Source of the DNA: Spirochaetia bacterium
Lineage (GTDB): Bacteria; Spirochaetota; Spirochaetia; Treponematales; UBA12059
NCBI GenBank assembly: GCA_034003955.1
Contig: JAVEXO010000002.1
Coordinates: 44,060 to 108,059, forward strand
Direction of reading: 5' to 3'
DNA: 64,000 nt
Positions 12,680 to 54,203 of this stretch are shown piece after piece. The stretch's first letter is position 1. Every line of letters begins with the position of its first letter. Below the pieces are notes generated by a model. That model was not told the origin of the DNA. It was given only the letters and a program-made list of their open reading frames with translations, and made no database searches. A program made the translations under genes and the position numbers.

Positions 12680-12722
12680 GACTATGATTTGTGAGGAACA
12701 CGACAATATGAAGGAGAGAACA

Positions 12723-13709: not shown

Positions 13710-13723
13710 AGGCAGCCCTTGGC

Positions 13724-35644: not shown

Positions 35645-35657
35645 TAACCATTGTAAC

Positions 35658-35688
35658 GGGGCCGCCTTAAAATGGCGGTCCCGGTTTT
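35658..35688 (+). terminator. GC-rich hairpin + GGTTTT after the SBP gene (partial terminator/attenuator)
   Basis: ggggccgcc (35658-35666) pairs with ggcggtccc (35674-35682) with one G-T pair. It is followed by ggtttt and then the SD of the next gene. Confidence 0.4.
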
Positions 35689-35699
35689 AGGAGCGTGAC

Positions 35700-36587: not shown

Positions 36588-37474
36588 TTAAGCATACAAG
36601 TTCTGCAATAAAGAACCACGCATCGCTTCATCCGGGACGCATACTGCTGGGAACATTTGTAATAATAGTTTTTATACTCTTCATGGTACCTTTTGCCATG
36701 GTAATTCTTAATTCAGCCAAAACTTCTAAAGAAATTATTTACAATGCTATTTCTCTCCCGTCGAGCTGGGGACAAATATTTACAAATGTTAAACTTATAT
36801 TCAGTAATCCCACGATAGACTACCTTGGAGCATTCTGGGACAGTACTGTCATCACCGTCATCTCTCTAGCCGTCATTGTCCTATTCTCGTCAATGTGCGC
36901 CTGGATTTTAGTCAGGAACAAGACACTACTGTCTGCAATACTATTTATGGTATTTGTTGCTGCCATGGTCATTCCTTTCCAAGTGCTTATGTATCCTCTC
37001 GTTCGCTGGATGCGCATAGTAGGTCAGTTTTTTCATCTAAGGCTATTGGGCACAGTCCCAGGCATTGTCTTTGCCTACCTGGGTTTTGGCTGTCCTTTGT
37101 CAATTTTTATCTTTCACGGTTTTATCAAAAACATACCGTATGAACTTGAAGAATCTGCTACTATAGATGGTTGTTCACGCCCTAAGACATTTTTTCTTAT
37201 TGTATTCCCGCTTTTACAACCCATAATCGTAACGATTCTAATACTCAACGGCATATGGATATGGAATGACTACCTCCTTCCGCTACTCGTTCTAGGGTCA
37301 AATGGAATTGTGCAAACCATACCCATTGCCGTAACGGCCTTCGCCGGAGCTTACCTTAAGCAGTGGGATCTTATACTTACTTCTACGTTGATTGCCATGT
37401 TGCCAATAATAGTGCTGTACCTGTTCGCACAGCGCTATATCATTAAGGGCATGGTTGAAGGTTCTATTAAATAG
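36584..37474 (+). CDS. carbohydrate ABC transporter permease
   Basis: It has the EAA loop ELEESATIDGCSRPKTFFLIVFPLL. Its start overlaps the preceding stop. Confidence 0.9.
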   Translation: MIKHTSSAIKNHASLHPGRILLGTFVIIVFILFMVPFAMVILNSAKTSKEIIYNAISLPSSWGQIFTNVKLIFSNPTIDYLGAFWDSTVITVISLAVIVLFSSMCAWILVRNKTLLSAILFMVFVAAMVIPFQVLMYPLVRWMRIVGQFFHLRLLGTVPGIVFAYLGFGCPLSIFIFHGFIKNIPYELEESATIDGCSRPKTFFLIVFPLLQPIIVTILILNGIWIWNDYLLPLLVLGSNGIVQTIPIAVTAFAGAYLKQWDLILTSTLIAMLPIIVLYLFAQRYIIKGMVEGSIK

Positions 37475-37485
37475 ATGGAGGACTT

Positions 37486-38841
37486 ATGAAGATTGTTCTG
37501 GTCGGAGCCGGAAGCATTCAATTTGGGTGCGGAACGCTTGGAGATATTTTTTGTAGCAAGAACCTTGTTGGTTCTGAGATTATGCTGCATGACATAAATG
37601 CTAGAGCCCTTGATGATGTATTGCAAACGGCATTGCATAGCATTGAAAATAATTCTCTGCCCTTTACCGTACATGCGACTACTGATAGAAAGGCTGCCTT
37701 CAAGGGAGCCGATTTCATAATATCCTCTATAGAAGTTGGCAACCGTTTCGAGCTATGGGATCAGGACTGGAAAATACCCTTACAGTATGGCGTCCACCAG
37801 GTGTACGGAGAAAACGGCGGACCCGGCGGCCTCTTTCATGCACTCAGGATCATTCCACCAATCCTGGATATAGTAAAAGACGCTATGGAACTTTGTCCCA
37901 ATGCCTATATATTCAACTATTCCAATCCTATGACTGCCATCTGTACTGCCGTTAAACGCGCGTATCCAGATGCTCGCTTCATAGGCATGTGCCATGAGAT
38001 AGGTTGGTTAAGCAAGTGGTTGCCGCGCATGCTTGGCATGAAAAAGGAAGACATCTATTTCAAGGCGGCTGGGCTCAACCATTTTAGTTGCATGCTTGAG
38101 GTAAAAAACAAGCTTACAGGTAAAGACCTTTATCCCGATGTGATGAGCAAGGCTCCAGCCTTCTTTGAACGCGAAAGTGGTTACAGCGATGTTTTCGATA
38201 GTTATCGCAAGACTGGTGTAATAGAGGAGTCAGAGCAATTCGAAAAGAATATAATTAATAGTAGGAGCCGTTACGAATGGGCAGATCGCAGACTTATAAA
38301 GTTTATGCTGGATCATTATGGCCTTTTACCCATAACGACAGACAGCCATTTTGGTGAATACCTCGGCTGGGCTTGGGATGTCGTTGACCACAGAGGCATT
38401 CTAGATTTCTATGATGTGTATAAGGTCATGCTATCCCAGACTAAGAGACATGAAATAAAACTGCAGACTACGGAGCGAGTCATACCAATAATCGATTCCA
38501 TGATTGAAAACTCAGGAATTGAGGAGTCTGCGGTAAACATCCAGAACAATGGTCTTCTGGCCGATCTACCATCATGGATAGCCGTTGAGGTTCCGGCTAT
38601 AGTCGACAAGACTGGAATCAAGGGTATTCCTATTACTAATGCGCCTAAGGGTTATGTTTCGCTATTAAGGGCATATTGTGGTGTATATGATCTTACCGCA
38701 GAGGCAGCAATACACAAGAAGAAGTCTTTTGCCATCCAGGCTCTTCTTGCCAACCCTGTCGTACACCAAGCAACGCAGATAGAAGCGATGGTAGACAGAA
38801 TGATTGATACGCAAGGAAAATGGCTGGGATACTTGCAATAG
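37486..38841 (+). CDS. glycoside hydrolase family 4 (NAD/Mn-dependent alpha-glucosidase/galactosidase type)
   Basis: It has an N-terminal Rossmann MKIVLVGAGSIQFG and the GH4 signature GMCHE. Confidence 0.9.
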   Translation: MKIVLVGAGSIQFGCGTLGDIFCSKNLVGSEIMLHDINARALDDVLQTALHSIENNSLPFTVHATTDRKAAFKGADFIISSIEVGNRFELWDQDWKIPLQYGVHQVYGENGGPGGLFHALRIIPPILDIVKDAMELCPNAYIFNYSNPMTAICTAVKRAYPDARFIGMCHEIGWLSKWLPRMLGMKKEDIYFKAAGLNHFSCMLEVKNKLTGKDLYPDVMSKAPAFFERESGYSDVFDSYRKTGVIEESEQFEKNIINSRSRYEWADRRLIKFMLDHYGLLPITTDSHFGEYLGWAWDVVDHRGILDFYDVYKVMLSQTKRHEIKLQTTERVIPIIDSMIENSGIEESAVNIQNNGLLADLPSWIAVEVPAIVDKTGIKGIPITNAPKGYVSLLRAYCGVYDLTAEAAIHKKKSFAIQALLANPVVHQATQIEAMVDRMIDTQGKWLGYLQ

Positions 38842-38899
38842 CGATGCATGCTGTGCAGAATACGCGTCGATTCTGCACAACACCCCAAAAAGGTATGCC

Positions 38900-39916
38900 A
38901 TGACAACTATAAAGCACATTGCACAGAAGGCTGGTGTCAGTCCAACTACGGTATCGAACGTCATACACGGCAACACTGCCCGTGTCTCCCCTCTTATTCT
39001 TGAGAAGGTCAGGAAGATCCTGCTGGAGGAAAATTATGTGCCTAATATGGGGGCCGTGATTCTTGCCAGGAATAATTCGCGGTTAATAGGCGTCATCCTC
39101 TTCATGGAGCCAAGGAGCGATCAAACCGTACTCGAAGACCCTTTTGCCTCATCTATACTTGGTACTCTTGAACGAGAAATACGCAATCAAGGTTATTTCA
39201 TGTTGCTCTATACGACGGTAGACAAGAATGAGGTATTGAGGCTTGTGGCTACCTGGAAACTAGACGGTCTCATCATGTTGTGGGTGCCCGGTGAAGTGGC
39301 TACAGGCATAAAGACGAGCATCAGTACACCCGTTGTTTTCGTAGATTGCTATTATGATGACGGCAATGATTACCACAACATAGGTCTCGACGATGAGGTT
39401 GGTGGCTATGAAATGGCTTCCTACCTCATATCAAAGGGGCATACAAAGATTGCCTTTCTAGCAAATTCAACGGAGTCTCCAAGCGTTGATACGGCTCGTT
39501 TCTCTGGTTGCCAACGGGCAGTATCTGAGCAGGGGTTTGCCCTTACGAAAGACAGTTTTATATCCGTCCCTAAATCTAGAACAGAACGGCATGCACTGTA
39601 TCATAGCCTCATCAAAGACCCACGTCCCTATAGTGCACTGTTCTTTTCTTCCGACTACTACGCGGCCGATGCCATTACCTATTTTAATGAGCATGACATA
39701 TCGGTACCAGAGGACATATCCGTGGCAGGCTTTGACGACAACTCTTTTTCCAGGCTCATAAGGCCACGCCTTACAACCGTGCATCAGGATGTCTTTAAAA
39801 AAGGCCAGAGAGCCGTATCAATGCTCATGAGCCTCATGCGAAAGAAGGCGGTAGAGACAAAAGATGATAAACTACCGGTACGACTGGTTATTAGGGATTC
39901 AGTCATGCAACTATAG
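38900..39916 (+). CDS. LacI family transcriptional regulator
   Basis: It has the MTTIKHIAQKAGVSPTTVSNVIHG HTH and a periplasmic-binding-protein-like body. The start was trimmed from the track ORF at 38804. Confidence 0.92.
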   Translation: MTTIKHIAQKAGVSPTTVSNVIHGNTARVSPLILEKVRKILLEENYVPNMGAVILARNNSRLIGVILFMEPRSDQTVLEDPFASSILGTLEREIRNQGYFMLLYTTVDKNEVLRLVATWKLDGLIMLWVPGEVATGIKTSISTPVVFVDCYYDDGNDYHNIGLDDEVGGYEMASYLISKGHTKIAFLANSTESPSVDTARFSGCQRAVSEQGFALTKDSFISVPKSRTERHALYHSLIKDPRPYSALFFSSDYYAADAITYFNEHDISVPEDISVAGFDDNSFSRLIRPRLTTVHQDVFKKGQRAVSMLMSLMRKKAVETKDDKLPVRLVIRDSVMQL

Positions 39917-39935
39917 GTAATAGTCAGCTATAAGC

Positions 39936-40514
39936 CTACTCTTCTCTTACGCTTGTATCCAAACGTTCGTTTGACAGAGCCAACAAGCCTCTGAGCAAAC
40001 CATGAATAATGGCTATCGGAAGGCATATGAAACCAGCTATTTCCAACCCCAGCTCATAAAAGAGAGAGCTGCACTTGTACGGTTTGCCCTTTAACCTGGA
40101 ATGCAATGCACTGAGTGGAATGCCATACATGTTGCCTGCTATCATCGTCTGTGCGGCCGCTAATATAACGCGGGCTTTTTGTTCTCCATATTCTGTTATG
40201 ATTGCATCGTAGGCAAACTTCATAGGAAAGCCTCGTGCATCTGCAAAATGCTGGACGAACATAATGGCCTTAGCCTCCTCCGGTTTTATAAATTCACCAG
40301 AACCGTTTAAAAAGCTGCCTTTTTCTTTGTTACTCATATTCTGCTGCAAGGCTATTTTTATGTGATAGTATGAGCAGGCAGCACAACCATTCACCTCTGT
40401 TACCGCCAGCTGCAATCTCTCTATGAAATGACTGCCAAGCCATTTGTTCTTCCTGTTTTTTAGTATCACGCCTACAGCCCTGGGTGCATAAACCAAGGCT
40501 CTATAGAGTTCCAA
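39936..40514 (-). CDS. carboxymuconolactone decarboxylase (AhpD-like) family protein with C-terminal TM segment
   Basis: It has the VTEVNGCAACSYYH CxxC motif. It has a TTG start without an SD, so the start is uncertain. Confidence 0.7.
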   Translation of the reverse strand: MELYRALVYAPRAVGVILKNRKNKWLGSHFIERLQLAVTEVNGCAACSYYHIKIALQQNMSNKEKGSFLNGSGEFIKPEEAKAIMFVQHFADARGFPMKFAYDAIITEYGEQKARVILAAAQTMIAGNMYGIPLSALHSRLKGKPYKCSSLFYELGLEIAGFICLPIAIIHGLLRGLLALSNERLDTSVREE

Positions 40515-40619
40515 AAAACCAAACTTACGCTTGTACCCTTCTGTCAGCTTAGGCTTTCCGGCACGTTCCTGATCGTTCTTGTCATTTTTATTCGAGTGTT
40601 TTTCCCCCAGTACTTTACT

Positions 40620-41624
40620 CTAGCCTACAGCCACACCAGATGGAATAGTTTCCTCTATAGAAATGTTTGCGACAGCACACGTTGTTGTAATCAACGCTTC
40701 AATGCCATGTATGAGTTCATCAAAGTCTATATTTTTTTTAAATGACAGCATTTTTATATCCTGTAATACCCTATTGAAGTACTCCATGGCATAGCCCATG
40801 GCAATTTCCGCACCATCCAATTCTACGACCATCTGGTTGATATCAAATAAGATATCGTCGTTTAGGCTTGTGCTCAATACTCTCTGTAGATTAGCACTGG
40901 CATCGTTTTCAAGTGCACACAATAATGGAAGCGTATAGCTACCCTGACGGATATCCTTATGGGTATCCTTGAGAGCCTGGGAGCCAGGGGCGGTATAATC
41001 TAGACAATCGTCATATATCTGGTAGGCAACACCAAGCTTTCTACCAATATCCTGCAGTGCGGCGCAGACTTCAGCATCCATTCCACCCAAGTATCCGCCG
41101 GCTTCTAGACTCAAGGCAAATAGTTCACCAGTTTTTTGTGATACGATCTCTATATACTCTTCATTGGACAAGTAGTGGTAACGACACATGTGTTGCTTAA
41201 TCTCACCTCGACACAGCGTTGTCATAGCCTTATTGAACATCGTTATAAGCCGCATGTCATGCAAGGCAGTCAGAATGCTTATACTCTTAGCTAAGGTATA
41301 ATCGCCGGCGTATACGGCGACGTCTTTACCAAATTCAGACTGAACTGAAACGGTTCCTCGTCTTAATGCTCCCTCGTCAACGATATCATCATGGATGAGC
41401 GATGCAATATGCATGAGTTCAAGAGCGGAGGCCGCGCGAATCGTTGTCTGCATGTTGTGTTTGCCGCAGCTTGCAGTAAGAACCAACAACAAAGGTCTGA
41501 GTAGTTTTCCTTTCTTTTCAGCAGTACGACGCACAGGAATCCTGACCATGCTATCGCTTTCTTCCAAGAACTGGTCTATCACCATACATACTGAATTCAT
41601 CTCAATATTTAGTTGGCCCATCAT
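40620..41624 (-). CDS. polyprenyl diphosphate synthase (trans-IPPS, long-chain type)
   Basis: The first DDxxD is LIHDDIVDE and the second is IYDDCLDY. An AAGGAG SD is present. Confidence 0.9.
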   Translation of the reverse strand: MMGQLNIEMNSVCMVIDQFLEESDSMVRIPVRRTAEKKGKLLRPLLLVLTASCGKHNMQTTIRAASALELMHIASLIHDDIVDEGALRRGTVSVQSEFGKDVAVYAGDYTLAKSISILTALHDMRLITMFNKAMTTLCRGEIKQHMCRYHYLSNEEYIEIVSQKTGELFALSLEAGGYLGGMDAEVCAALQDIGRKLGVAYQIYDDCLDYTAPGSQALKDTHKDIRQGSYTLPLLCALENDASANLQRVLSTSLNDDILFDINQMVVELDGAEIAMGYAMEYFNRVLQDIKMLSFKKNIDFDELIHGIEALITTTCAVANISIEETIPSGVAVG

Positions 41625-41708
41625 ATTTCACTACTCCTTAAAAAACACTCCGTCTAGCCGCGTTAAACCCGGGAGAGACGGAGCGAGTCATGTCTAGTCG
41701 TAAAAACC

Positions 41709-43133
41709 CTAGTTGTTGGCAGCAGCCCCAACTAACACCTTTTTATCCTCTGTCTCTACGGTTGTGCCGTTTAGTTTAGCCAATACGCGCGGAGCAAACC
41801 ACTTCGCCAGGGTTACGAGCGTCAATACAGGGGGCCTTGATGGCGCACCGGGTATGACACTAATATCACAGGCGTAACAATTAGGAATCGGTGACTCAAG
41901 GTTCTTGTCCATGACCATACCAACCGAGCACGTTCCACCCGGGTGGCCGAAGGTCAAGCCGCCCTTCCAGTGGCTTAAAGAGCCATGGTGTATAGTGTCT
42001 TCCACACAGCCCATTTTTAGAAGAATCTTTTCATTTACATAACGACAATAGTTCATTCTCTGTTCATCTTTGGATGTCAGTGTCTTTGAAACCATACCGT
42101 CCCAAGCTACTCGACCTTCGCCGTCATCATGAATTTTATTGAACAGAGCCACTCTGCGCGGATGCTTTTTCCAGGTGTCTAAGAAGCCCTTTATGCCTTT
42201 GTTCTGGAGTTGGAATGTTGACCAGAACAATCTACCCCAGGTTACATCTGAGGCAAAAAGACAACCATGCTTGTCATCCATGAAGTTAACTGATGTTCCG
42301 TGCTCATACATGTTTCCTTTTTCACCTTCCGGCATGAGGCCTAATGATGAGAAGCTGGGATCACCGAACATTCGTGTTCCCGCTGTGGTTACGCCTGAAT
42401 GTATCATTATACTGGCAGTTCCAATGCCACCGGCTGCACAAATAAGCATTTTACCACGGATCTCGTACAGCTGATTGTCTTGAGTGCCCCATGCCTTGAA
42501 ACCTACAGCCTTGCCATTTTCTACAATAACACTGTCTACCTTGATACGCGTCATCATTTTCGCACCGTATTCCATGGCTTCATGGGCAGAATAGTAACCC
42601 ATCCACTTGGCTCCATGCTTGCAGCCCATGGGAGATGTAGTGCAGGCATATTTACATTTTTCCCAATTGATATGCCGTAAGGAAGGAACAAATGGGTATC
42701 CAAGCTCATTGGCAGCCTGCATCATACGTTTGTTTATTGGACCAAGAAACTCTTCGGGAGTTTCAGACACCCAGCTTTCAACCTTGGCTGCCTCTAGATA
42801 CGGCCTGAGATTTATACCTACATCGTCCCAGCCTGTGAATTCAGGAAGCGCGGCAATACCTGCATAGAGGTATGATCCACCTCCGACACCAGTACCGATC
42901 ACGATACCATTTCCTTCTATGCTCGATGACCAGTTTTGGCCTGGATTTCTGTCCATGTGTTCGCCGTTGAGCATGCCCAAGGCTGTTCCGATGCCCTTCA
43001 GGGTGTCTCCACCCTTCTCAAGGAGAAGTACCTTTTTGCCTGCCTTTGACAGGTCCTTTGCGAGTACACATCCACAGGGTCCTGCGCCGGCTATGACCAC
43101 ATCATAGCCATCAATAAACACCTTCTTCTTCAT
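41709..43133 (-). CDS. GMC-family FAD-dependent oxidoreductase
   Basis: It has the dinucleotide fold DVVIAGAGPCGCVLAKDLSKAGKKVLLLEKGG and a GMC C-terminal-like HPGGTCSVG..ACDISVIPG. The start was trimmed to MKKKVFIDGYD at 43133, with GGAGG upstream. Confidence 0.8.
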   Translation of the reverse strand: MKKKVFIDGYDVVIAGAGPCGCVLAKDLSKAGKKVLLLEKGGDTLKGIGTALGMLNGEHMDRNPGQNWSSSIEGNGIVIGTGVGGGSYLYAGIAALPEFTGWDDVGINLRPYLEAAKVESWVSETPEEFLGPINKRMMQAANELGYPFVPSLRHINWEKCKYACTTSPMGCKHGAKWMGYYSAHEAMEYGAKMMTRIKVDSVIVENGKAVGFKAWGTQDNQLYEIRGKMLICAAGGIGTASIMIHSGVTTAGTRMFGDPSFSSLGLMPEGEKGNMYEHGTSVNFMDDKHGCLFASDVTWGRLFWSTFQLQNKGIKGFLDTWKKHPRRVALFNKIHDDGEGRVAWDGMVSKTLTSKDEQRMNYCRYVNEKILLKMGCVEDTIHHGSLSHWKGGLTFGHPGGTCSVGMVMDKNLESPIPNCYACDISVIPGAPSRPPVLTLVTLAKWFAPRVLAKLNGTTVETEDKKVLVGAAANN

Positions 43134-43584
43134 CGAAAGACCTCCAAAGTAGCTCGTATTTTTTCTCACGTTTCCATGAGATTTTTCCTTACGAAGCCAT
43201 GGCCGTGTCTTTTTTGTTCGAGCTCCCGAAAGCGCATGCTGCATATTTTTTTTAGCAACATTTTCCATGAATGAGTCTCAATGGAGATGTATCCGCTGAG
43301 ACATCGTTAGCAGAGTTTTATAAACGAAAATGCTGATAACTACAACGATCCCTCAGGATGAAGTGTTGCGAAAACACATTCGTAGAATTGAGCTGATTAG
43401 GATCGATTGTGAGGGCAGGAACCTGATAGTAGACTGGGAGGATGCATAATGGAGTACGGAAAGTTCATTTTGCATGGGAGGGAACGCCAGATCCGTTCAA
43501 CTCATCATGGAATTTCCGTCTTCTTGACCCGCCAATCAATTTTTACACACGGCAATGTCAATAGGTACATTGTGTTCGTTAAGC

Positions 43585-43613
43585 ATGCTTTTGTCAAGTA
43601 TAATGCTTTATCT
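43585..43613. repeat. 29-nt direct repeat, copy A (spans the stop codon of the 1476-aa ORF)
   Basis: atgcttttgtcaagtataatgctttatct matches 48022-48050 at 25 of 29 positions in the same orientation. Confidence 0.75.
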
Positions 43614-46600
43614 CTCTACTGGATCTAATGCCGTCAAGCCAGGTAGAGATAAGCGCTCTAGATATTCCAAGAAGGCTCGTGGGCCAGAAGAAAGATGAAA
43701 ACCAGGAGCATGTATATCTGCCAAGTGTTTTTCATCCTCACTACAGACCACCGTCAAGTTTGCTCGACCTATGGCATGATGCAGTGCCCACTCCTGTGCA
43801 TTGAGAGAACCACGCGATGAACTACTGCGATCCTCTGTAAAATGCTCGAGTGCCGCTGGCCCAGACCACATAATTGTCTGGGCAGTATCGAGGCTCAGGA
43901 CAAGGCGCTGCTCAGCTCGAGTCAGTTTCTTTAATTCCTGATTATTTCCAGACACGTCCATTGCAACAATGATGACTTTTTCCGGATGTTTCTTAAAGAG
44001 GGATTGTATCATAGACTCTACGGCTTTCTGGTCAGGCTGCATAGCAGGTTCATCGGAGTCTAGCCTGCTTGAAACACGAGTATAGCATACGGCAAGCTGA
44101 TCTACTCGGGGAAGCAAGGCCGCCATGACGCCAAATTGAGCCTCAAGCTCAGCTCCACCAAAGACGGCTATGAAAGGATGTACCGGTGCATTAAGAATTG
44201 AAGACAGAATAGATAGTTCCCGTGCCACCAATGGCCCGGCCAATTTTCTTGATACAAATTTAGGTACTCCCGTTATACTCGCATGTCGTCTTTGACAAAC
44301 ATTGAAGGCGTCATTCACGAACCAACCATCACAAAGACCAGCTAGCGATCGAGCAAAGGCTTCATCGTTGTCTTTCTCTCCGGCGGCGAAACGTAAATTC
44401 TCTATCAGGTTTACTGAGCCCGAGACAATATCTTCTTTTCCAATCAATACACCAGAGGCACCAACACTCGTTTCATGAAATATAAAATCAGAACCCAAGT
44501 GTTTCTGCAACATTTCAGCAACCGGTTTAAGTGAGTAGCGATGATAGAGATCTTCTCGTGATACATTAGAATCTTCGGCGGCTCCTGGATCTCCTAGATG
44601 AGAGCATACGATTGGTGTAGCACCCTTCTCAAGCAAGACTCTCAATGCTGGTATAATTTGGAGTATTCGTCTGTCATCCTCTATATAATAATCTTCAACA
44701 CCTATGTTGGCATCGACTCTAACGAGAACCTTTATTCCATCCAAGCGATCTATGTCGTCTAGACTCGCTCGTTGCGTGTTTGTCTTGCTCATCATGTCTG
44801 CTTGCTCTAAACGTATCAGCTTATGTACCGCTTCTGCAGCCTCGGCAGCCGTTTTACAACGAGAGGCTGCCAAACTAACGGCAGAAAGTGGCAGGAAAAA
44901 TTCAGATATAGGCGCCACGCCCCGGTAGACAGCACCTGTATTGCCGTCGGCTGTAACCCTCTCGCCTTCTCGTAACAGAGTCGGAGTGGATCCATGGAAT
45001 AAGACCGTTTTATGCTCTATATCTATTTCTACATCACTGCAGCCGACTATGCATGGCTTGTTCATTGCCATGGCGGTAATTGCCGCGTGAGATGTTCTTC
45101 CTGGATAGATAGTAACGATAGCATGGGCACCGTTCATTACGGCGAAGTCTGTGGGTTTTGTGGTGTGAGCCAGGTAAACTACGCTTTCTCTTCGAGCCTC
45201 TGCTTCCTGTAGACGCTTCTGCGTAAGCACCAGTGTTCCAGAAACAACGCCTCCATTGATTGGTACACCTACGGTCAATGGTGGATTCCATAGACGTGAC
45301 TGGAAGTCAGCCCTGGGCAGCGCCACAGATGCATAGGCCATCTCAAGACGATCCAAACGTTCACGGTATTCTGTAAGGCCAATCACTCCTCGGCGCAAGA
45401 AATCTGTATCAGCCGAAAGATTGGCAAAGGGTCCTAACTTAGCCGCACGTGCCTGCAGCAGGTATAGCTTTCCGTCTTCCACGGTAAACTCAAGATCAAG
45501 ATCCTGCCTATAATGCCCAACCAGCAGGCTCTTACAGGTTTCCAGCTCATCATGCAAGACCTTATCTAGATTTGCAACAGGCTCGGTATCGGAACTACCC
45601 ATCACCACTTCTTCACCCTGCGCCTGCTTTTTAAACTCGCCAAAGAGTTCGTCCTCTCCGGTTATAGGATTGCGCGTAATGACTACACCGCTCAGGGAAC
45701 GATCATTCAGGTTGCCAAAGGCCAATTGCTGAACGGTAACAGCAGTTTCTACATGGATATCGGTTACCAGTGTCTTAGAATATGCACGGACGGCTTGGTT
45801 GCCTCTAGATGCGTAGACAAGCTGGATACAACGGAGTATCTGTTCTCTTGGATCCAGGAAGAATCGCTGCCCAAAAAGAGTAGCCAAGCGAGACTCCATC
45901 TCATCCACGCTTCTTACTACGATGCGTTTGGCAGTTCTCGGTTCCATGTCTCTTCCACCCAGGATATCTCGGCCATCCAAGAGAGCGCGGGCATCCAAGG
46001 CTGTACCGCTATTTTTTGCATCAGACTCATCGTTCAAGTCTTCTTGAGCTATCGAATCTTTAGTGGCAGCATCTCCCTTTTTGTTTTGTAGGTTTTGAGT
46101 GCCTATAGAGGCATCCCCATCCGTGTGAATAGTCACTTCAGACAGATCGGCAAGTATTGTAAGATCTTGACCATCAAACAAGTCCCAGTTGTCAAGAAGA
46201 TCCAAGGCATCTAAACAATTACTTAGAAATCTTTTGTACAAGGAATCTGCCAAGACTTTTCCTCTTCGCTTTACGATTCCATCCATCACAGTTGGAGTAA
46301 TACCTACGTTCAGTATCGTAGCCATGACACCAGGCATAGACATCGGCGCCCCAGAGCGTATTGATACCAAAAGCGGGCGATCTGCATTGCCGAGTTCTCT
46401 ACCGCTCTGTCTTTCAAGCTCACGCAGGTTTGCATCCACCAAGGCTATTATGATTGGATTGTCAAGCTTCCCACTCTGCGAACTGTATTTAAAGAGAGGG
46501 AAACCAAGAATAAAGGCTGGAGGAACCATAAGACCTATCTTGGCCATGTCTAGAATGCTGTTACCTTTTCCGCCAAACATATGGCGAGCGCCGTCATCTA

Positions 46601-48038
46601 CTTCTCGCCAGGTGGCTGCGATACATGATTCAGGAGATCTGTGTTCAAAATTAGGTTGGGGATTAAAGTCAGCATAGAGACGACGAGTCTCACTTTGTCG
46701 CTTTAATTCCAGGTCTACAGCGCTCGCCACCTTCTCTGTGAATTCACTTAAGACATGCAGGAGTGTTCTGCGTATGAAGTTGTTAAAGAATCTAGTCTTG
46801 ATTGAAGAAAGCCTTGAGGTTGGGAAGTCATACGCCTCCAGGGCCTTGTTCAGGTTCCCACTCATCATATCGATGATGCCTGTCTGAAGATACGTTTGTA
46901 GTTCCCTGCAGATAGAAACCAGACAACGCTTTGTCCTGAAAAAATCGTAGACAGAAGACGCACGCAGCTCTTCTAACTCCTGTTGGTTTGACTTTACATC
47001 ACCTATATCAAGACCCTTGATGACAGAAATAGCAAGAATTTCCAGGATGATGCCTAATGCTTCACGAATGTTATGTGGTGTAACATCCGTATAATGATTG
47101 TTTGTAAGATCGCTGGCTAAAAGGAATACTAGACGGCCAATGGATAGATCGAGCAATAAAAAATCATAGAGTTCGATACGACCCTCGCTATACGACTTCT
47201 TAAGAAGCTGTTTAAACATTGCCAGGCGTTTTATGTAATCTAGCAGCAAGTGGGGCTTGGAAAGGTTGTCAGAAGTGAGCATTTCAAGAAAGCTCTGCAC
47301 TTCTGCCCTCATAAAACATCGATCGAACATGTCCATGCCATCAGCAAGCTCTCGCTTGACGGCGGCTAGGTTACCTGCCCCGTAATCCCATAAATATTGT
47401 AATCGCTCCAGGAGATCCTGTGCTAGATCAATAAACTCCTGGCTTTCATCCTCTATAGAAAACATGCTTGGCAGAGCCACGTAGCCGACCTTGCGCATGG
47501 GTTCTGGATTATCATGCAGGACAAGCTGCAGGTAAGGCTCCAAAAAGAGCCCAATTATACGAGGAGACAGGCGTCTATGAACCTCTTTCCTAAGATCACC
47601 TGCAAACCCTCGAACAGGATCATCCTCTGTCCTTGCCTCCTCGAATTCTTCGGCGCTTGCTCTTATTTGCTCAATCATGTCTTCCGCATTCTGTCGGGTG
47701 GGAAGCTTCTTTATGACTTCGCGGGTGTAGTATATAAAGGTTGCAGATGGCTTGGAAACCGAATTCAGGGTAAGACGCATCTCACTCTCTATCCGTGCAT
47801 ATATTTTCTCTATATCGTCTTTCTGAGATCGTTGATCCGGAACGCCTTCATCCTGACCTAAGAGCCTGAGGTGTACCAGAATTTCAATGAGCAGATCGAT
47901 GCGTCCCTGCTCATCAGCGCACTCCCTAACCTGTTGGAGTTGACCTAGAATACTGTCCCATGTGTTGAGGCGCACAGTTATCCTCCAGAAAGAGTGATAA
48001 ATCCCATCTTTGCCCCTAGAGATGCGCTTGTCAAGCAT
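43608..48038 (-). CDS. multidomain fusion protein: unknown helical N-domain + PPDK-type ATP-grasp + PEP-utilizer phosphohistidine swivel domain + phosphoglycerate-kinase-like module
   Basis: This is a 1476-aa single ORF. PPDK_N-like motifs are FGGKGNSILDMAKIGLMVPPAFIL, PLLVSIRSGAPMSMPGVMATILNVG, GVVITRNPITGEDELFGEFKKQAQGEEVVMG and DLEFTVEDGKLYLLQAR. The swivel motif is PGRTSHAAITAMAMNKPCIVGC (His984, nt 45087-45089). PGK-like motifs are KVLVRVDANIG..DDRRI..LLEKGATPIVCSHLGDPG, NLIENLRFAAGEKDNDEAF, VNDAFNVCQRRHAS, FIAVFGGAELEAQF and MWSGPAALEHF. Confidence 0.85.
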   Translation of the reverse strand: MLDKRISRGKDGIYHSFWRITVRLNTWDSILGQLQQVRECADEQGRIDLLIEILVHLRLLGQDEGVPDQRSQKDDIEKIYARIESEMRLTLNSVSKPSATFIYYTREVIKKLPTRQNAEDMIEQIRASAEEFEEARTEDDPVRGFAGDLRKEVHRRLSPRIIGLFLEPYLQLVLHDNPEPMRKVGYVALPSMFSIEDESQEFIDLAQDLLERLQYLWDYGAGNLAAVKRELADGMDMFDRCFMRAEVQSFLEMLTSDNLSKPHLLLDYIKRLAMFKQLLKKSYSEGRIELYDFLLLDLSIGRLVFLLASDLTNNHYTDVTPHNIREALGIILEILAISVIKGLDIGDVKSNQQELEELRASSVYDFFRTKRCLVSICRELQTYLQTGIIDMMSGNLNKALEAYDFPTSRLSSIKTRFFNNFIRRTLLHVLSEFTEKVASAVDLELKRQSETRRLYADFNPQPNFEHRSPESCIAATWREVDDGARHMFGGKGNSILDMAKIGLMVPPAFILGFPLFKYSSQSGKLDNPIIIALVDANLRELERQSGRELGNADRPLLVSIRSGAPMSMPGVMATILNVGITPTVMDGIVKRRGKVLADSLYKRFLSNCLDALDLLDNWDLFDGQDLTILADLSEVTIHTDGDASIGTQNLQNKKGDAATKDSIAQEDLNDESDAKNSGTALDARALLDGRDILGGRDMEPRTAKRIVVRSVDEMESRLATLFGQRFFLDPREQILRCIQLVYASRGNQAVRAYSKTLVTDIHVETAVTVQQLAFGNLNDRSLSGVVITRNPITGEDELFGEFKKQAQGEEVVMGSSDTEPVANLDKVLHDELETCKSLLVGHYRQDLDLEFTVEDGKLYLLQARAAKLGPFANLSADTDFLRRGVIGLTEYRERLDRLEMAYASVALPRADFQSRLWNPPLTVGVPINGGVVSGTLVLTQKRLQEAEARRESVVYLAHTTKPTDFAVMNGAHAIVTIYPGRTSHAAITAMAMNKPCIVGCSDVEIDIEHKTVLFHGSTPTLLREGERVTADGNTGAVYRGVAPISEFFLPLSAVSLAASRCKTAAEAAEAVHKLIRLEQADMMSKTNTQRASLDDIDRLDGIKVLVRVDANIGVEDYYIEDDRRILQIIPALRVLLEKGATPIVCSHLGDPGAAEDSNVSREDLYHRYSLKPVAEMLQKHLGSDFIFHETSVGASGVLIGKEDIVSGSVNLIENLRFAAGEKDNDEAFARSLAGLCDGWFVNDAFNVCQRRHASITGVPKFVSRKLAGPLVARELSILSSILNAPVHPFIAVFGGAELEAQFGVMAALLPRVDQLAVCYTRVSSRLDSDEPAMQPDQKAVESMIQSLFKKHPEKVIIVAMDVSGNNQELKKLTRAEQRLVLSLDTAQTIMWSGPAALEHFTEDRSSSSRGSLNAQEWALHHAIGRANLTVVCSEDEKHLADIHAPGFHLSSGPRAFLEYLERLSLPGLTALDPVER

Positions 48039-48050
48039 AATGCTCTATCT
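48022..48050. repeat. 29-nt direct repeat, copy B (spans the start codon of the 1476-aa ORF)
   Basis: The sequence is atgcgcttgtcaagcataatgctctatct. On the minus strand it reads AGATAGAGCATT ATG CTT GAC AAG CGC AT. Confidence 0.75.
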
Positions 48051-48160
48051 TAGAGTGCTTGACCTCGGTGGACAGCCTAATACATAGAAATTGCAACTAG
48101 AATACTTGCGTCTTGTATGCGTAGCACTAATACTCTAGGCAGAAAAGAGGAAATCTTTAT

Positions 48161-49081
48161 ATGATGAGCAGATTCTTAAACTATATAGAAATAAAGACAA
48201 AAATTACGAGTGTTTTTGCTTTTTTGTATTCCCTGGCTTTGCTTTTTGCATCGCATATTACTATTAACTGGAGACTAACAACTTCCTTTTTTATCTCTAT
48301 GCTTGTCTTCGATCTGACAACAACTGCAATTAACAACTATATAGATACCAAGACTAACGATCAAACTCTTCAATTTAAGCGTTCAATAGCTTTAGTAATA
48401 ATCTTTGTTTTATTTATCATTGCTGCGGCTTTTGGCCTGTATCTTGCGTACCAAACGGATGGAGTTGTTCTTGCTGTAGGTGGGGTTTGTTTCCTGTTTG
48501 GTGTTTTTTATACCTACGGTCCTATACCCATATCCCGACAACCCTTAGGCGAACTGTTTTCCGGCTTGTTTTATGGTTTGCTCATCCCGTTCCTGTTGCT
48601 GTATATCAATCTGCCTAAAGGAGCGCTCGTGCAGTACAGTGTGTACTCAGGGACTTTCACAATGAGTATTCGTATCATCCCCGTTGTCAAGATGCTCCTC
48701 TTTACAATCCCTCCTGTATGCCTAACTGCAAATATAATGCTTGCCAATAATATATGTGATGTAGAGAAAGATGTTGCAGTCAAACGTTATACCTTGCCCT
48801 ATTACCTTGGTTCTAAGTCACTTTTACTCTTTGTGGCATTAAACTATTTGCCATATTTAGCGCTTATTATAATGGTGGCCATACGAATGCTACCCCCGCT
48901 CTGCCTTATATCTTTTGCAACGATTCTCATAGTTAAGAAGAATATCAAGGCATTTCTTGATACACAGGAAAAAGCCACAACCTTTATTAACTCCATAAAG
49001 AATTATGTCATTATCATGGGTTCATTTACGTTACTAATCATTATAAGTGGTTTTCTAGCTCAAACAGTCAATAGTCTATGA
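48161..49081 (+). CDS. UbiA family prenyltransferase (MenA-like)
   Basis: It has about 8-9 TM helices, a first Asp-rich motif NNYIDTKTND and a second NNICDVEKD. Confidence 0.87.
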   Translation: MMSRFLNYIEIKTKITSVFAFLYSLALLFASHITINWRLTTSFFISMLVFDLTTTAINNYIDTKTNDQTLQFKRSIALVIIFVLFIIAAAFGLYLAYQTDGVVLAVGGVCFLFGVFYTYGPIPISRQPLGELFSGLFYGLLIPFLLLYINLPKGALVQYSVYSGTFTMSIRIIPVVKMLLFTIPPVCLTANIMLANNICDVEKDVAVKRYTLPYYLGSKSLLLFVALNYLPYLALIIMVAIRMLPPLCLISFATILIVKKNIKAFLDTQEKATTFINSIKNYVIIMGSFTLLIIISGFLAQTVNSL

Positions 49082-49084
49082 TGC

Positions 49085-51292
49085 TTAATCTACCTTAAAA
49101 CGTTTGACCGTTTGTTCTACGGTCTGAATACTGACCATGTTCTGTTTGCTCATCTCGTTGACCAGCACGACAGATGTGTTTATATCTGCAGCGCCTACGT
49201 TTATTTCGGCTATTGCCTGCTTGACCTCGGCCGTTACATCGGTAAGGGTGTGTACGGCTTCAAGTATAGATTGACTTCCTACAGCCATCTCCCGAGAGCC
49301 TGATTCTACCTCTGTGCTTATACGGCGCAGGTTTTGAACGCTGTCAAGCACCTGTTTGTTGCCGGCGCTCTGTTCTTCAACAGCATTCCTAATTTCACTC
49401 TGTCTGTGGCTTACTTCCTGGATAGATACGCGTATTGATTCGAACGAATGGCCTGCCTCTCCCGCAAGCTGTACACCTGAATCTACAATATCATGCAAGG
49501 ATTGTAATACATCTGAAATATCTCGAGACCGTGATGCGGTATCCTCGGCTAACTTGCGTATTTCGTCTGCTACGACGGCAAAGCCTTTTCCTGCATCCCC
49601 AGCATGTGCCGCTTCGATTGCTGCATTCATTGCCAGCAGGTTTGTTTGTGATGCTATGGATGTGATGATGCTGTTAGTCTCTTCAAGGCCATCCGAACGG
49701 TTAGCTATGGAATGTATGCTCTCTGTAACAGCCGTCAGGCGGTCAAATCCTTGATCAGAAACTTCCTCAAGTTTTTTGAAGGCTGCTACGCTGTGATCGA
49801 CATTGTTGTTTATGGAATCCATGTTTGAAACCATCTGTTCAACAGCAACCGCACTGTTGCCCAGATATACAGCCTGCTCCTGCACCAGCCTGGTAAGGCT
49901 GTTAATATTTCCTACAATCTGTTCAATGGTAGCGCTGACTTCTTCAACAGCATTACCTTGCCTGTCAAAAGAATGGCTTACGCTATTAATGTTGCTATGT
50001 ATCTCTATGATGGCCGAAGATGTCTGTTCCATGTTTTTGGCCAAGTCTCCACCTAACATCTGCAATGTAGCAACCTCGTTACGGATAGTACCTATGATCA
50101 AAGCAAGATTACCCGTAAAGGTGTTAAAGCTTTGTGCAAGGCTACCCATTTCATCCCTACTCTTTACCACTAATTGCTGAGTAAGGTCCGCCTCGCCTTT
50201 GGCTATCTCCTCTAAAGCCTTGCGCGTGAACTGTAATGGTTTGAGAAATTGTATAGACAGGAGTGAAACAAGGATTACAATGATTAATAAGCCAATGGCT
50301 AGAATAACAATATTTGTTCTAAGGAGATTAAGCACTCCAGAATAAGTTTCTTCTTCCGGAACGACGGTGCCATACATCCATGGTTCAGGATATTCACTAA
50401 TAAAAATAGGCACGAAACTTTTAAGAGCATAACTGTCTAGCGCAACTGAATAGGTCAACTGAGTAAATGAATCACCGGATTTTAGCGATTCCATGATCCC
50501 TTCACGCAGTTCAGAGTCCCATTCCGGTGCTATTTTACCGATTCTATCGGCGCTAGGATGTGTCATCACAATTCCGTGATTAGAAATCAAACGCCCAAAA
50601 CCTGTTTCATAGAGCCTAAGACTACCAAGCTTATTACTAATCTCATCGTTACGTAGGTCTACACCAACGGCTCCTATGAATTGTCCATCTACGATGATAG
50701 GCGCAACAGCAGATACCATCACGTCATCTTTTCCTTGCAGCGATACTGTATACGGTTCACTTAGGTACTGGTTACGAGTCTGTTTTGGGATCGTATAGTA
50801 GTCCGCTGCATACGCTTCTTTTGCACTTGCCACCTCGAGCATTATAGAGCCAGATCCGCGCATGAAATGAGGATAAAACCGTCCGTCATTATCGCTACCG
50901 GAAGCAGTGTCAGTCGCAAATAGAGCGTCATTACCTTCTAATACCTCTGGTTCCAAGAGTATCCATGCCCCAAAGATGTCATTATTGCCTATGAGAATGG
51001 CTTTGAGTAAAGATAGATACGTTGATCGGCGTGCTTCTGCTTCAAGCTCAGGAAAGCTGGCCATAATTGAAGCCAAGACCTGTGCGTGTTCCATAGGCGT
51101 TTCAAGGATTCGAGCCACCTTGTTGGCATACTCCCTGGATAGGCTCTCCATGTAACGATAAGAATCCTGTTTATTCTGAGTAAAAACACCATTGATTACC
51201 AAAAAACCGCTCAATCCAAAGACAAGGGTAAGCGAGACGGTTATTGCAAGAATAAGTTTAAGTCTAATTGACATGAATCGCTTTCTTGACAT
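49085..51292 (-). CDS. methyl-accepting chemotaxis protein (double-Cache-like sensor, HAMP)
   Basis: It has two TMs flanking a ~290-aa periplasmic domain, then a HAMP domain. The conserved signalling hairpin is [35 protein letters not shown]. Confidence 0.92.
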
Positions 51293-51418
51293 GCGGATAC
51301 TCCCGACAAAACCTAATAGGAACTAGCCAGGTTATATCCTAAAACCGGCTTGTATAACTATATACTTGCCATAGCCTTGCTTATTGTCAAGCTGGAGGCT
51401 CGATTGTCTTGCTATCTT

Positions 51419-52120
51419 TTATGGCTTTCCTGTAAAAGGGTTGGTAGACAAGTATATGGAGGAGCCTTCATCTTCCAAAACAAGGCTGCTGATAGTAGGA
51501 AGAATAAACCCAGGCTCCTCACTAAGACTATGCGTTGTATCATCGGTAAACGTTAGCTGGGCCCAAACGGCACAACCATCACTGCCATGCGAAGGAATGG
51601 ATAAGTCAGGTATAAACTCAAGCTTGGATTTCGGCTCGGGACTGCCACGTATTCTACAGTCCAGGACATCAAAAGAGGTATAATTTCTGCCATCGAATGC
51701 TGTTATTGCAAGGGGAAGCTTAGGATGCACTGGAAGTTTGCACGGTACATAGAATGAGAGTACAACTTCTCCATGTATAATAGCGGCGCTGAAATTTTCT
51801 ATTACGGTACTGGCGTATTGTTTATCAGCGATACGCATATGAAAATAGTACGTAGGAAGGGCGATAGAGAGAAATGCACTTTCATACAGTTCTATTTGCT
51901 CTTCAGGGCTAAAAACCCCGTCGTGATCATGATCGTAGCGACACTGCATGTCTAATGAAAAATTGCGTAAAAGATACCAATCAACCTGGATGCCGTCTAA
52001 AAGCTCATCCTGAATAAGCAGAGTGAACACAGCATCTACCCACTGATGAGGATGAGCGAAGGCCTGTATAACATTACCGTACATCAGTATACAGGCAATG
52101 AGCATCGGTAGTAGTCGCAT
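51419..52120 (-). CDS. DUF1007 family periplasmic protein
   Basis: It has a signal peptide followed by AHPHQWVDAVF, then WYLLRNFS and a DHDHDGVFSPEE loop. The start was trimmed to MRLLPMLIAC at 52120. Confidence 0.72.
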   Translation of the reverse strand: MRLLPMLIACILMYGNVIQAFAHPHQWVDAVFTLLIQDELLDGIQVDWYLLRNFSLDMQCRYDHDHDGVFSPEEQIELYESAFLSIALPTYYFHMRIADKQYASTVIENFSAAIIHGEVVLSFYVPCKLPVHPKLPLAITAFDGRNYTSFDVLDCRIRGSPEPKSKLEFIPDLSIPSHGSDGCAVWAQLTFTDDTTHSLSEEPGFILPTISSLVLEDEGSSIYLSTNPFTGKP

Positions 52121-52190
52121 GTGTCTAAGGTTGCAGCGCCACTTCATTAGGGTCAAGAGCTAACAGAATCCCTGTTGGCATTCAATTCGA

Positions 52191-54062
52191 CTAATCAACT
52201 TTAAATTTACGCACTTCTAGTTCCAGCGCATCTATGCTTGCCCTATTATCCTGGCTCAGATCATTGACTGTGCTTACGGCTACACTAATTTCTTGAACAC
52301 CTGCGGCTATCTCTGTCATGCTTCCCGTTACTTCCTGTGTAATCATCTCAAGATTCTTGCTTTCTTGTATGACTTCCTTGCTTCCTATGAGCATCTCCGA
52401 TGAACCAGAACGCACCTGAGAAGTTATTTCGGTTAACTGACTTATAGCCGAAAGTATTTCCTTGCTGCCAGCCGCCTGTTCGTCCATTGAATTTCGTATC
52501 ATGGTTTCATATTCAGAAACGATCTTGACCTTCTCGTCTATGTCGATAAACTGCTTTAACACCAGCGATGTGGAGTTAGACACCTGATCTACGGAGGATT
52601 TTACCTTCTTTAAAATCAAAGATATTGTCTTGGCCTGCTCTGCCGATGATTCGGCGAGGTTTCGTATCTCATTGGCAACAACAGCGAAGCCTTTCCCGGA
52701 TTCACCTGCATGTGCCGCTTCAATAGCAGCATTCATAGATAGCAAATTGGTCTGACTGGCGATATTGCTTATGACAGCATTGATCTCTATGAGGCCCTCA
52801 GAGTCTTTCGCTATTTCTTGTATTTTTGTTGAGACATCGATAAGGTCGGCATGCCCCTTCTCTGATGCCTTTGTTAGAGCTGTAACATTAACCTCGTTCT
52901 TTACGAGGCTCTGTAGAACCGATGCAATGTTAGCAAGCATCTCCTCTATGGCCGCAGAAGACTGGGTGACACTAGCCGATTGCTGATCGATGTGGTCATT
53001 GAGCTTTCCAATATTGTTGGTTATCTGCTGCATCGTTGAATTAGTCTCTATGACACTAGCCGATTGATTAATAGTCTGGTTCTTAACACTAGAAAGGTTT
53101 GTGCTTATTTGATGAACCGAGGCTGCGGTCTCATTCATATTAGCAGAAAGATCCAGTCCAAGTTCAGATAGCTTAATGGATTTTTCCCTTATAAGGGTAA
53201 CCAACCCCTTTATTTTATCCATAGACTGATTGAAGTAGCCTGCTAGCTCACCTATCTCATCATTCTTCTTGATTTCAAGCCGTTTAGTCAGGTCTCCTTC
53301 ACCATCAGATATATCCTTTAGCATGGCCGAGGTATGCTTGATAGCCTTAATCATCTGGGCGTACATCACCAGGACGACACAAACAATGAGTGCCGTCAAA
53401 ATTTGCATTATAAGGGTAAATTGAATGGAGATGTAAAGCCTTCTGGTCTGATGAGCAATTTCTAGCGCACCTCTAGTATCAAGTTCTTTCAAGAATTTAT
53501 TGACAGGAACCATTATCTTGTCTACTTCAGCAGAATATGCATCATCAAAGACAATACGGAAAGCGAACTGGCGTGCCGCTTCCCCCTGCATTGGTTTAAA
53601 GGGACCATGTACTATATAGTTATTCATGACACTGTCCATGGCTTGAGTCTCTGTGGCTACCAGGGTAGAAGACTTTTTAGACGCATCTTCCAAAAGAAGC
53701 ATTTCTGTGTCGGAGAAACCTAACTCAAGCATAATGTCTGATTGTTTTTTAATCTCGCCCCGATACAGATTCTGGTGTACAAATTCTGGTCGTGCGATTT
53801 CACCAGCTCGCCATTTTACTATGTCCCAATAGGCGTTGTAATACTTTATGTCTGCGGTGGCTATATATGATCTGCACAGAGACGTCAGATCTGCCGAAGT
53901 TTGCCTAAACTCATCAGCCAAGTTATAGGAAAGGTATTTTTTTTCATGTACAGACTGAAGATCTGTACTTTTCTTGATTGTGAAAAATTGAGCTCCTATG
54001 GTCATGGTAATGGCTACGCCCGCTATGACGGAAAAGAGTATTGCCCGTTGTTTAAGATTCAC
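52191..54062 (-). CDS. methyl-accepting chemotaxis protein (helical-bundle sensor, HAMP)
   Basis: The signalling hairpin is [35 protein letters not shown]. The start was trimmed to the GTG at 54062, with AAGGAG 5 nt upstream (the track ORF starts at a TTG at 54089). Confidence 0.9.
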
Positions 54063-54203
54063 GAAGTCTCCTTGGTACAAACCTATCAAATTTCTATTAA
54101 AACATGCAAAGTGCAGATAATAACAAATTTATTAGTATATCTATATGCTTTATTCTTATCAAGTCGTAATGCACAAGGGATTTAAACGAAGCTTGACTAG
54201 GTT

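Follow-up and report, generated by a model that had tools for sequence, protein, structure and literature searches.

What does a protein do that joins the ATP-grasp and phosphohistidine domains of a pyruvate phosphate dikinase (PPDK) to a phosphoglycerate kinase (PGK)? We identified such a gene on the minus strand at 43608-48038 of a 64,000-nucleotide stretch (the window) of contig JAVEXO010000002.1, from a Spirochaetia bacterium (assembly GCA_034003955.1). The locus is, as the initial annotation had read it, a single unbroken open reading frame (ORF) of 1476 codons plus a stop codon. Its modules run in the order helical N-terminal domain (N-domain), PPDK-type ATP-grasp, phosphohistidine swivel and PGK module, with no phosphoenolpyruvate (PEP)/pyruvate barrel (Table 1). 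Judged by its sequence, the product is a four-module phosphotransfer enzyme derived from PPDK, and it may represent a new way to move phosphate on or off 3-phosphoglycerate (3-PG). Our best single hypothesis, which we hold tentatively, is that the swivel histidine, His984, carries phosphate back and forth between the ATP-grasp and a 3-PG-like carboxylate bound to the PGK N-lobe.

Residue numbers throughout follow the 1476-codon ORF. The true gene likely begins at GTG 47975 and spans 43608-47975, encoding a product of 1455 residues, since a GGAGG motif lies six nucleotides 5' of this codon, the same start is used by the gene call on an independent assembly (P0001 in locus L079), and the family alignment starts there. 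The domains are therefore located as first described, but the residue numbers attached to them, and used here, are probably 21 too high with respect to the 1455-residue product. An assembly chimera, or two genes merged by a sequencing error, was a concern raised from the outset, and we consider it refuted, with a negligible chance of being correct. No supporting point was found for it; an identical 1455-residue gene, with the GMC oxidoreductase neighbor likewise present, occurs on the independent Logan assembly SRR15311596; the continuous architecture recurs in 83 protein clusters and at 69 species-level loci; and the few shorter proteins come from genes cut off at the end of a contig or from single calls that were split.

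The 83 clusters (formed at 90% identity) share the three Pfam domains, and their proteins are 1175-1441 residues long, with 38-67% identity. The 69 loci come from a survey in which each GTDB species was represented by one genome, and all are in metagenome-assembled genomes (MAGs), with no cultured isolate among the loci of that survey. They belong to anaerobic lineages, namely Treponemataceae, Rectinemataceae and other Spirochaetota, together with Riflebacteria/Ozemobacteraceae, Elusimicrobiales and Wallbacteria. The source labels of these proteins are automatic ones such as 'phosphoglycerate kinase', 'PPDK' and 'swiveling domain-containing protein', and full-text literature searches returned no paper describing the architecture, in keeping with the first impression that no protein of this kind has been characterized. 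One relative with 66% identity (L006, CAYUYI010000129.1) is labeled 'uncultured Propionivibrio sp.'; the other close relatives are all from Spirochaetota, and the label probably reflects faulty binning and not a betaproteobacterial host.

Evidence for the dikinase head comes from profiles, motifs and predicted structure. In a Pfam search, PPDK_N (PF01326) matched the protein with E = 2.9e-21, split over three stretches, and PEP-utilizers (PF00391) matched residues 951-1035 with E = 2.1e-17. The hallmark blocks of the ATP-grasp, which the initial annotation placed at residues ~486-905, begin as claimed with GGKGN (489-493), although the best Pfam stretch is 534-816. The PPDK motifs of this region (GGKGN, VSxRSG, SMPG, TAVxVQ, TRNPxTG, AQGE, D-x-EFT and LQxR) are invariant in the family, and the catalytic T-S-H histidine described for the swivel is present in GRTSHAAIT, a motif that includes His984 and is invariant in 83 of 83 relatives. 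Because the ATP-site motifs and the catalytic T-S-H are all kept, the protein should autophosphorylate His984 from ATP, like PPDK and VadK. The VadK protein of Mycobacterium tuberculosis (Rv1127c) is known to autophosphorylate on the equivalent histidine and acts via protein partners of the methylcitrate cycle (PMC13400623). The barrel that was noted as missing is indeed absent, with no match to PEP-utilizers_C (PF02896) at E ≤ 1 in the window protein; a true PPDK used as a control (P0084) scores 7.6e-80.

Among NCBIfam models, the best match was PPDK itself (TIGR01828, 310 bits over profile positions 180-509 of 865), which did not reach the cutoff of 843, and the second best was NF004531, the barrel-less 'PPDK' of the VadK type (284 bits; cutoff 456, not reached). 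The head is far closer to PPDK, at 310 bits, than to PEP synthase, at 54-74 bits. The best matches are PPDK-type and not of the rifampin phosphotransferase (RPH) type, and neither Pfam nor the PDB gave a match to a rifampin-binding domain. A predicted model of residues 480-1476 (predicted local distance difference test, pLDDT, 79.5; predicted template-modeling score, pTM, 0.69) found PPDK (E = 5e-40) and PGK (E ~1e-21) as its best matches in a Foldseek search of the PDB. The template-modeling score (TM-score) was highest for a Clostridium symbiosum PPDK conformer with the His domain facing the ATP-grasp which, going by the scores alone, suggests that the model puts the swivel at the ATP-grasp. 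The acidic low-complexity insert, first placed at ~625-705, is real and located at ~615-707; it is gapped in 94% of relatives, is predicted to be disordered (pLDDT <50), and is unique to the window protein.

The C-terminal part was proposed to be a PGK, and this held up in both profile and structure searches. Pfam PGK (PF00162) matched residues 1094-1402 with E = 1.3e-53, over profile positions 2-300 of 379 only, and Foldseek recovered the two-lobe PGK fold, with 30+ PGK structures matched at E ~1e-21 and TM-scores of 0.64-0.72, open forms being the best. The PGK motifs originally quoted (RVDAN, DDRRI, SHLGDP, ENLRF, RRHAS, GGAELEAQ, CSED and SSGPRA) are all present, and the PGK hinge and C-terminal helix are conserved. 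As a ruler for individual positions, we used the sequence of human PGK1, which was validated by the finding that the expected catalytic columns are all invariant in the 106 nearest free PGKs; these are mostly proteins of 391 residues, and the few with source names come from Chloroflexota/Anaerolineae. By this alignment, D1109, N1111, R1124, H1147, R1216 and R1250 correspond to PGK D23, N25, R38, H62, R122 and R170, so that six of the seven 3-PG-site residues are present in the window protein. Across the family, D23, N25, H62 and R170 are invariant, and R122 and R38 are kept in 82 and 76 of the 83 clusters, respectively.

The seventh residue, R65, is Asp1150 in the window protein. The initial annotation was right that the substrate-side residues largely persist, but the change from SHLGRP to SHLGDP that it recorded is not incidental: R65 is replaced by Asp or Glu in 83 of 83 clusters and is followed by a nine-residue insertion ending in an invariant S-R-E. 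The free PGKs keep R65 in 105 of 106 cases and A171 in 103 of 106, with a spacing of 8 residues as opposed to 17 in the fusion family; A171 is an arginine throughout the clade of the window protein (clade A, below). As read from these residues, the end of the pocket that would receive a 2-hydroxy-carboxylate is retained and the distal-phosphate end is altered, in both clades of the family. In PGK, R65 helps to lock the closed state through a salt bridge with D218 (PMC7729029). We considered whether a broken R65-D218 latch might hold the module open and dropped the D218 half of this idea, since D218 is absent in 14 of the 106 free PGKs and also in alignments of the Campylobacter jejuni and Pseudomonas PGKs; D218 is thus not universal in free PGKs, and only the replacement of R65 is family-specific.

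On the nucleotide side, the family falls into two clades. In the window protein, K215 is replaced by Glu, K219 by Gln, N336 by Ser and E343 by His, the GGG and GGGD motifs are deleted, CSED (1432-1435) stands in place of GGGDT, and STGGGA has become SSGPRA. Clade A, comprising the window protein and P0002-P0049 (49 clusters, Spirochaetota), has E/D at position 215, Q/R/L at 219 and S/A at 336, has lost the GGG and GGD loops, and reads S(S/T)GPRA for STGGGA. Its C-lobe is ~43 residues shorter, with a pairwise identity of 0.38 compared to 0.59-0.76 for the other domains, and the positions of the adenosine pocket are variable or deleted. The former phosphate loops are newly fixed, with E/D215 in 46 of 49 clusters, C371 in 46, E/D376 in 45, P395 in 48 and R396 in 36; fixation in a new state points to re-specification, not decay. 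Most members of clade B (P0050-P0083, 34 clusters) keep K215, K219, GGG, N336, E343, GGGD and STGGGA, all of which are intact in the 106 free PGKs, and P0052, a clade B protein, matches the Pfam PGK profile over its full length with 412 bits. The proposed loss of the module's own ATP site therefore holds for the window protein but not for its sister clade, which had not been anticipated, and the intact site in clade B makes the loss secondary rather than family-defining.

The complete PGK of clade B could also be taken as the mark of a simple bifunctional fusion, in which a PPDK-like partial reaction and a PGK are joined with no phosphotransfer between them, comparable to the PGK-triosephosphate isomerase (TIM) fusion of Thermotoga. 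PGK fusions without obvious mechanistic coupling do exist (PMC7729029). Such an arrangement is nevertheless very improbable here, because the PGK module of the window's clade appears unable to bind nucleotide, yet it has been kept with conserved cleft residues. In addition, D/E65 and the insertion are found in all members and not in the 106 free PGKs, and a dikinase head without an acceptor would have no activity by itself.

We favor a mechanism in which the swivelling His984, once phosphorylated, would exchange its phosphoryl group with a 3-PG-type alpha-hydroxy-carboxylate held on the PGK N-lobe, with the PGK module sitting in place of the acceptor barrel of PPDK. The net reaction would be ATP + inorganic phosphate (Pi) or water + a 3-PG-like acid <-> AMP + pyrophosphate (PPi) or Pi + an acyl phosphate. 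In the glycolytic direction, the enzyme would form ATP from AMP and PPi at the cost of 1,3-bisphosphoglycerate (1,3-BPG), making it a PGK-step analogue of PPDK substituting for pyruvate kinase. The PGK module of the window's clade would no longer bind nucleotide, and the conserved acidic residues and arginine in the former phosphate loops of clade A could hold Mg2+ and the histidine-delivered phosphoryl group. Such an enzyme might have evolved by fusion of a working PGK to the dikinase head, as in clade B, possibly with two phosphate donors, the nucleotide pocket having then become redundant and been lost in clade A.

This histidine-to-carboxylate transfer is suggested by the acceptor position of the module, by the invariant ligand-side residues and by a clade A cleft re-specified as expected for an Mg2+ site with a protein donor. 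It also has precedents in the chemistry of succinyl-CoA synthetase and ATP-citrate lyase and in the acceptor-module swaps of the dikinases RPH and HpeHI. A narrower version, in which the family is a PPi/AMP-linked 'phosphoglycerate dikinase' that interconverts 3-PG and 1,3-BPG via a phosphohistidine, coupled to ATP + Pi <-> AMP + PPi, is possible but somewhat doubtful. The free energies involved are about -49 kJ/mol for an acyl phosphate and about -46 kJ/mol for ATP -> AMP + PPi. From these textbook values, we estimate that 1,3-BPG + AMP + PPi <-> 3-PG + ATP + Pi would lie near equilibrium and be reversible.

Several observations weigh against this mechanism. With R65 replaced and nine residues inserted, the distal 3-phosphate pocket appears remodeled in both clades, which leaves the exact substrate uncertain and means that it may differ from 3-PG. 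R38, the carboxylate and transition-state arginine of PGK, is Ser in 7 of the 49 clade A clusters, and K215, the transition-state lysine, is replaced in clade A. In clade B, purifying selection has maintained the full PGK nucleotide site, which the model does not require, and no operon partner is evident, as neither five individual gene contexts nor ORF clustering over 75 loci revealed a conserved neighbor. Finally, the conserved N-domain, with 57 invariant residues, is left without a role, and it has remote relatives in PGK-less proteins that carry the ATP-grasp and swivel. As for the clusters with Ser at position 38 (P0016, P0020, P0037-P0040 and P0045, e.g., at loci L001 and L003), their local sequence reads ...ESV(R/L)R..., with an arginine one to three positions away, and this subclade would represent either compensation by a shifted arginine or loss of the carboxylate site.

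Some of these losses are what might be expected if the protein were instead an autophosphorylating switch of the VadK type, whose PGK module, dead in the window's clade, would only bind 3-PG or a related metabolite and thereby gate autophosphorylation or the output of the N-domain or a partner. Clade A best keeps the ligand residues D23, N25, H62, R122 and R170 and loses the chemistry residues R38 (in part), K215, K219 and D374. VadK is itself a barrel-less PPDK derivative that autophosphorylates on histidine and regulates metabolism by protein contacts (PMC13400623), its family model ranks second for the window protein, and dead PGK domains in fusions are known from kinetoplastids (PMC7729029). 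We nonetheless find a pure sensor rather unlikely. Every catalytic PGK residue is retained in clade B, which would be needless for sensing, and the re-specified cleft residues of clade A are conserved instead of drifting. The module also sits exactly at the PPDK acceptor position, and the VadK-type score stays under its cutoff.

The N-domain, which the initial annotation described as all-helical and devoid of any recognizable motif, fits that description. AlphaFold2 predicts an all-alpha domain of ~22 helices (pLDDT 86.8, pTM 0.81); Foldseek gave no match in the PDB (best E = 0.05, TM-score <0.2), and neither a Pfam search at E ≤ 10 nor phmmer against the PDB returned anything. The domain equals the catalytic domains in conservation, with a pairwise identity of 0.62-0.66 within clades, and many of its 57 invariant positions are Arg, Lys, His, Asp or Glu. 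A HMMER search with the N-domain over 1.84 billion representative proteins gave 25 matches only. Those that are not fragments of family members are remote, with 23-26% identity, and lie in proteins of 866-1150 residues. Two of them, P0100 (E = 2e-8) and P0107, combine a helical N-domain with PPDK_N and PEP-utilizers and lack PGK, and a third, P0103, has PPDK_N only. P0100 and P0107 share the pattern DDPxxxxAGDxRxxxHRRLS with residues 139-158 of the window protein (DDPVRGFAGDLRKEVHRRLS), and a word-indexed search with the N-domain of P0107 gave no match. These relatives in PGK-less proteins suggest that the N-domain, ATP-grasp and swivel may be an older unit, with PGK as a later addition.

With such conservation and such relatives, the N-domain could be an acceptor or output domain. 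It might even be the true acceptor and catalytic domain, forming with the ATP-grasp and swivel a self-contained dikinase in which PGK is an accessory, active in clade B and degenerated in clade A. Its charged invariant residues, its level of conservation and the occurrence of its remote relatives, P0100 and P0107, as PGK-less dikinase-like proteins would all suit such a role, and RPH and HpeHI also have an acceptor domain that is not placed C-terminal to their swivel (PMC4844700, PMC12167813). We consider this unlikely, as the homology to these distant proteins is weak, no ligand-binding relative of the fold is known, and the gene context suggests no candidate substrate; moreover, the invariant 3-PG-side residues and the re-specified PGK cleft would be left unexplained. 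Under transfer from His984 to the PGK N-lobe, which we continue to prefer, the N-domain may be regulatory, serve in oligomerization or provide a second substrate site.

Comparison with known systems places the fusion most clearly with the dikinases. It shares with PPDK (EC 2.7.9.1, TIGR01828, PDB 1KBL), its best structural match, the ATP-grasp, the swivel histidine, all catalytic motifs and their order, but differs in having a PGK module for the TIM barrel and an extra N-domain of 460 residues, and in scoring 310 bits against a cutoff of 843. Its likeness to PGK (EC 2.7.2.3, PF00162) extends to the two-lobe fold, the six N-lobe ligand residues, the hinge and the C-terminal helix; the differences are R65 to Asp with the S-R-E insertion, A171 to Arg, nucleotide motifs lost or replaced, the shortened C-lobe, and fusion of the module C-terminal to a dikinase head. 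VadK (NF004531) likewise has a PPDK-derived ATP-grasp and swivel histidine and no barrel, but it is a two-domain protein of ~490 residues without N-domain or PGK, and the fusion scores 284 bits against its cutoff of 456.

RPH, HpeHI and glucan water dikinase combine an ATP-grasp with a swivelling phosphohistidine and a separate acceptor site, a logic that the fusion may follow, whereas their ATP-grasp is of the RPH type, their domain order is different, and their acceptors are hydroxyls of antibiotics, phenolics and glucans. To our knowledge, no PGK-fold acceptor is known in that class. Succinyl-CoA synthetase and ATP-citrate lyase use a mobile phosphohistidine that is charged at an ATP-grasp and then passes its phosphate to a carboxylate, yielding an acyl phosphate; there, the histidine-carrying fold and subunit organization are unrelated to those of the fusion, and no pyrophosphoryl (dikinase) chemistry takes place. 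Swapping of acceptor modules among dikinases is itself known from RPH (PMC4844700) and HpeHI (PMC12167813). The fusion has two candidate acceptor modules, the PGK N-lobe and the N-domain, and would most resemble, in its mode of action, a dikinase whose acceptor module has been exchanged, with the PGK acceptor fold and the N-domain new to the class.

Glycolysis is seen as nearly uniform in its lower half, and a review lists only two variations around the GAPDH and PGK steps, both from Archaea (PMC8100219). If the narrower phosphoglycerate dikinase reading is correct, the fusion would add a variant not known before to the PGK step of glycolysis and gluconeogenesis in anaerobic Spirochaetota, Riflebacteria and Elusimicrobia, and the first PGK fold used as the acceptor of a protein-bound phosphoryl group. 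Linking 3-PG and 1,3-BPG to AMP and PPi through a phosphohistidine would give uncultured anaerobes, which are dominant in digesters and sediments, a new way to conserve or invest energy, in parallel to PPDK and pyruvate kinase. Irrespective of the exact chemistry, the two clades amount to a natural experiment in enzyme evolution, the stepwise repurposing of a two-lobe kinase: clade B has kept an intact nucleotide lobe, whereas clade A has lost the adenosine pocket and carries altered phosphate loops. The N-domain is of interest in itself, being large and highly conserved and having no structural relative in the PDB; it may be a new fold, and it is shared with other dikinase-like proteins.

Table 1. 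Positions of the fusion gene and its parts in the window; residues are numbered on the 1476-codon ORF.
Feature	Residues	Position	Strand	Remarks
Whole ORF		43608-48038	-	1476 codons + stop; likely gene 43608-47975
Probable ribosome-binding site and start		47973-47986	-	GGAGG 47982-47986, GTG 47973-47975
N-domain	22-485	46584-47975	-	All-alpha, ~22 helices
N-domain signature DDPVRGFAGDLRKEVHRRLS	139-158	47565-47624	-	
PPDK-type ATP-grasp	486-905	45324-46583	-	Invariant PPDK catalytic motifs
Acidic low-complexity insert	615-707	45918-46196	-	Inside helical subdomain of ATP-grasp
Phosphohistidine swivel (PEP-utilizers)	920-1045	44904-45281	-	Among the protein's most conserved parts
His984 codon CAC	984	45087-45089	-	Within GRTSHAAIT (residues 980-988)
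Helical linker, swivel to PGK	1046-1093	44760-44903	-	Poorly conserved
PGK N-lobe (3-PG side)	1094-1285	44184-44759	-	
Putatively remodeled 3-phosphate pocket		44553-44591	-	D1150 codon 44589-44591; S-R-E residues 1160-1162
Eroded PGK C-lobe	1286-1445	43704-44183	-	GGAELEAQ 1294-1301, CSED 1432-1435
C-terminal PGK helix returning to N-lobe	1446-1476 + stop	43608-43703	-	SSGPRA; LPG motif conserved

The fusion gene is followed on the same strand by genes for a GMC/FAD oxidoreductase (41709-43268), a polyprenyl synthetase (40620-41624) and a 192-residue ORF without a Pfam match (39936-40514), which together occupy 39936-43268 (-), and a UbiA prenyltransferase gene (48161-49081, +) diverges from it. 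These flanking genes may form a small prenyl-lipid or quinone cluster. A functional link of the fusion to prenyl lipids was rejected, however, in the absence of a conserved neighbor over the 75 loci, and the prenyl-metabolism neighbors are therefore taken as coincidental. The commonest neighbors over these loci are a generic ATP-binding cassette (ABC) ATPase, at 13 loci, and a major facilitator superfamily transporter, at 7; the GMC neighbor recurs in L079, from the same organism, and not in the loci of other species. No second PGK was found within the 64-kb window, where the only PGK-like match is the fusion gene.

We also looked at candidates for natural unfused or two-gene versions. P0109 is the C-terminal part of a full gene in L060, P0114 is cut by a contig end, and P0118 comes from one MAG whose gene is broken into parts of 705 and 595 residues, of which it is the second; among these candidates, no genuine unfused PGK of the family type was found. 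The split gene of this MAG (L080:3830-7788) consists of a 705-residue ORF and a 595-residue ORF (swivel and PGK) 53 nucleotides apart, which may reflect a frameshift, a pseudogene or two genuinely separate genes. At another locus (L076:91-6374), a PGK-less protein of 1147 residues (P0085), with a large N-region, PPDK_N and a swivel, is followed by an unusually long GAPDH of 417 residues and a 2-hydroxyacid dehydrogenase of 396 residues. We set this context aside as a functional clue, as it is a single locus, no homology of the N-terminus to that of the fusion could be detected, and the context is missing around two other PGK-less relatives; if the pairing recurs, it would tie the wider protein class to 1,3-BPG/3-PG metabolism.

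The G+C content is 0.42-0.485 over ~36000-54000, compared with 0.49-0.56 in most of the flanks, and this block, which may be an island or a local shift in composition, contains the fusion gene and two chemoreceptor genes. The latter are methyl-accepting chemotaxis protein genes at 49085-54089 (-), encoding proteins of 735 residues (dCache/PDC and HAMP) and 632 residues (HAMP) around a DUF1007 gene (51419-52156). Elsewhere in the window, long ORFs overlap on opposite strands at 12395-13144 (-)/12591-13661 (+) and at 13708-14820 (-)/13724-14866 (+), and one of each pair is presumably spurious. A sugar-uptake unit at 34367-39916, made up of an ABC solute-binding protein, two permeases, a family-4 glycosyl hydrolase and a LacI-type regulator, is ordinary chromosomal context and is consistent with a saccharolytic spirochaete.

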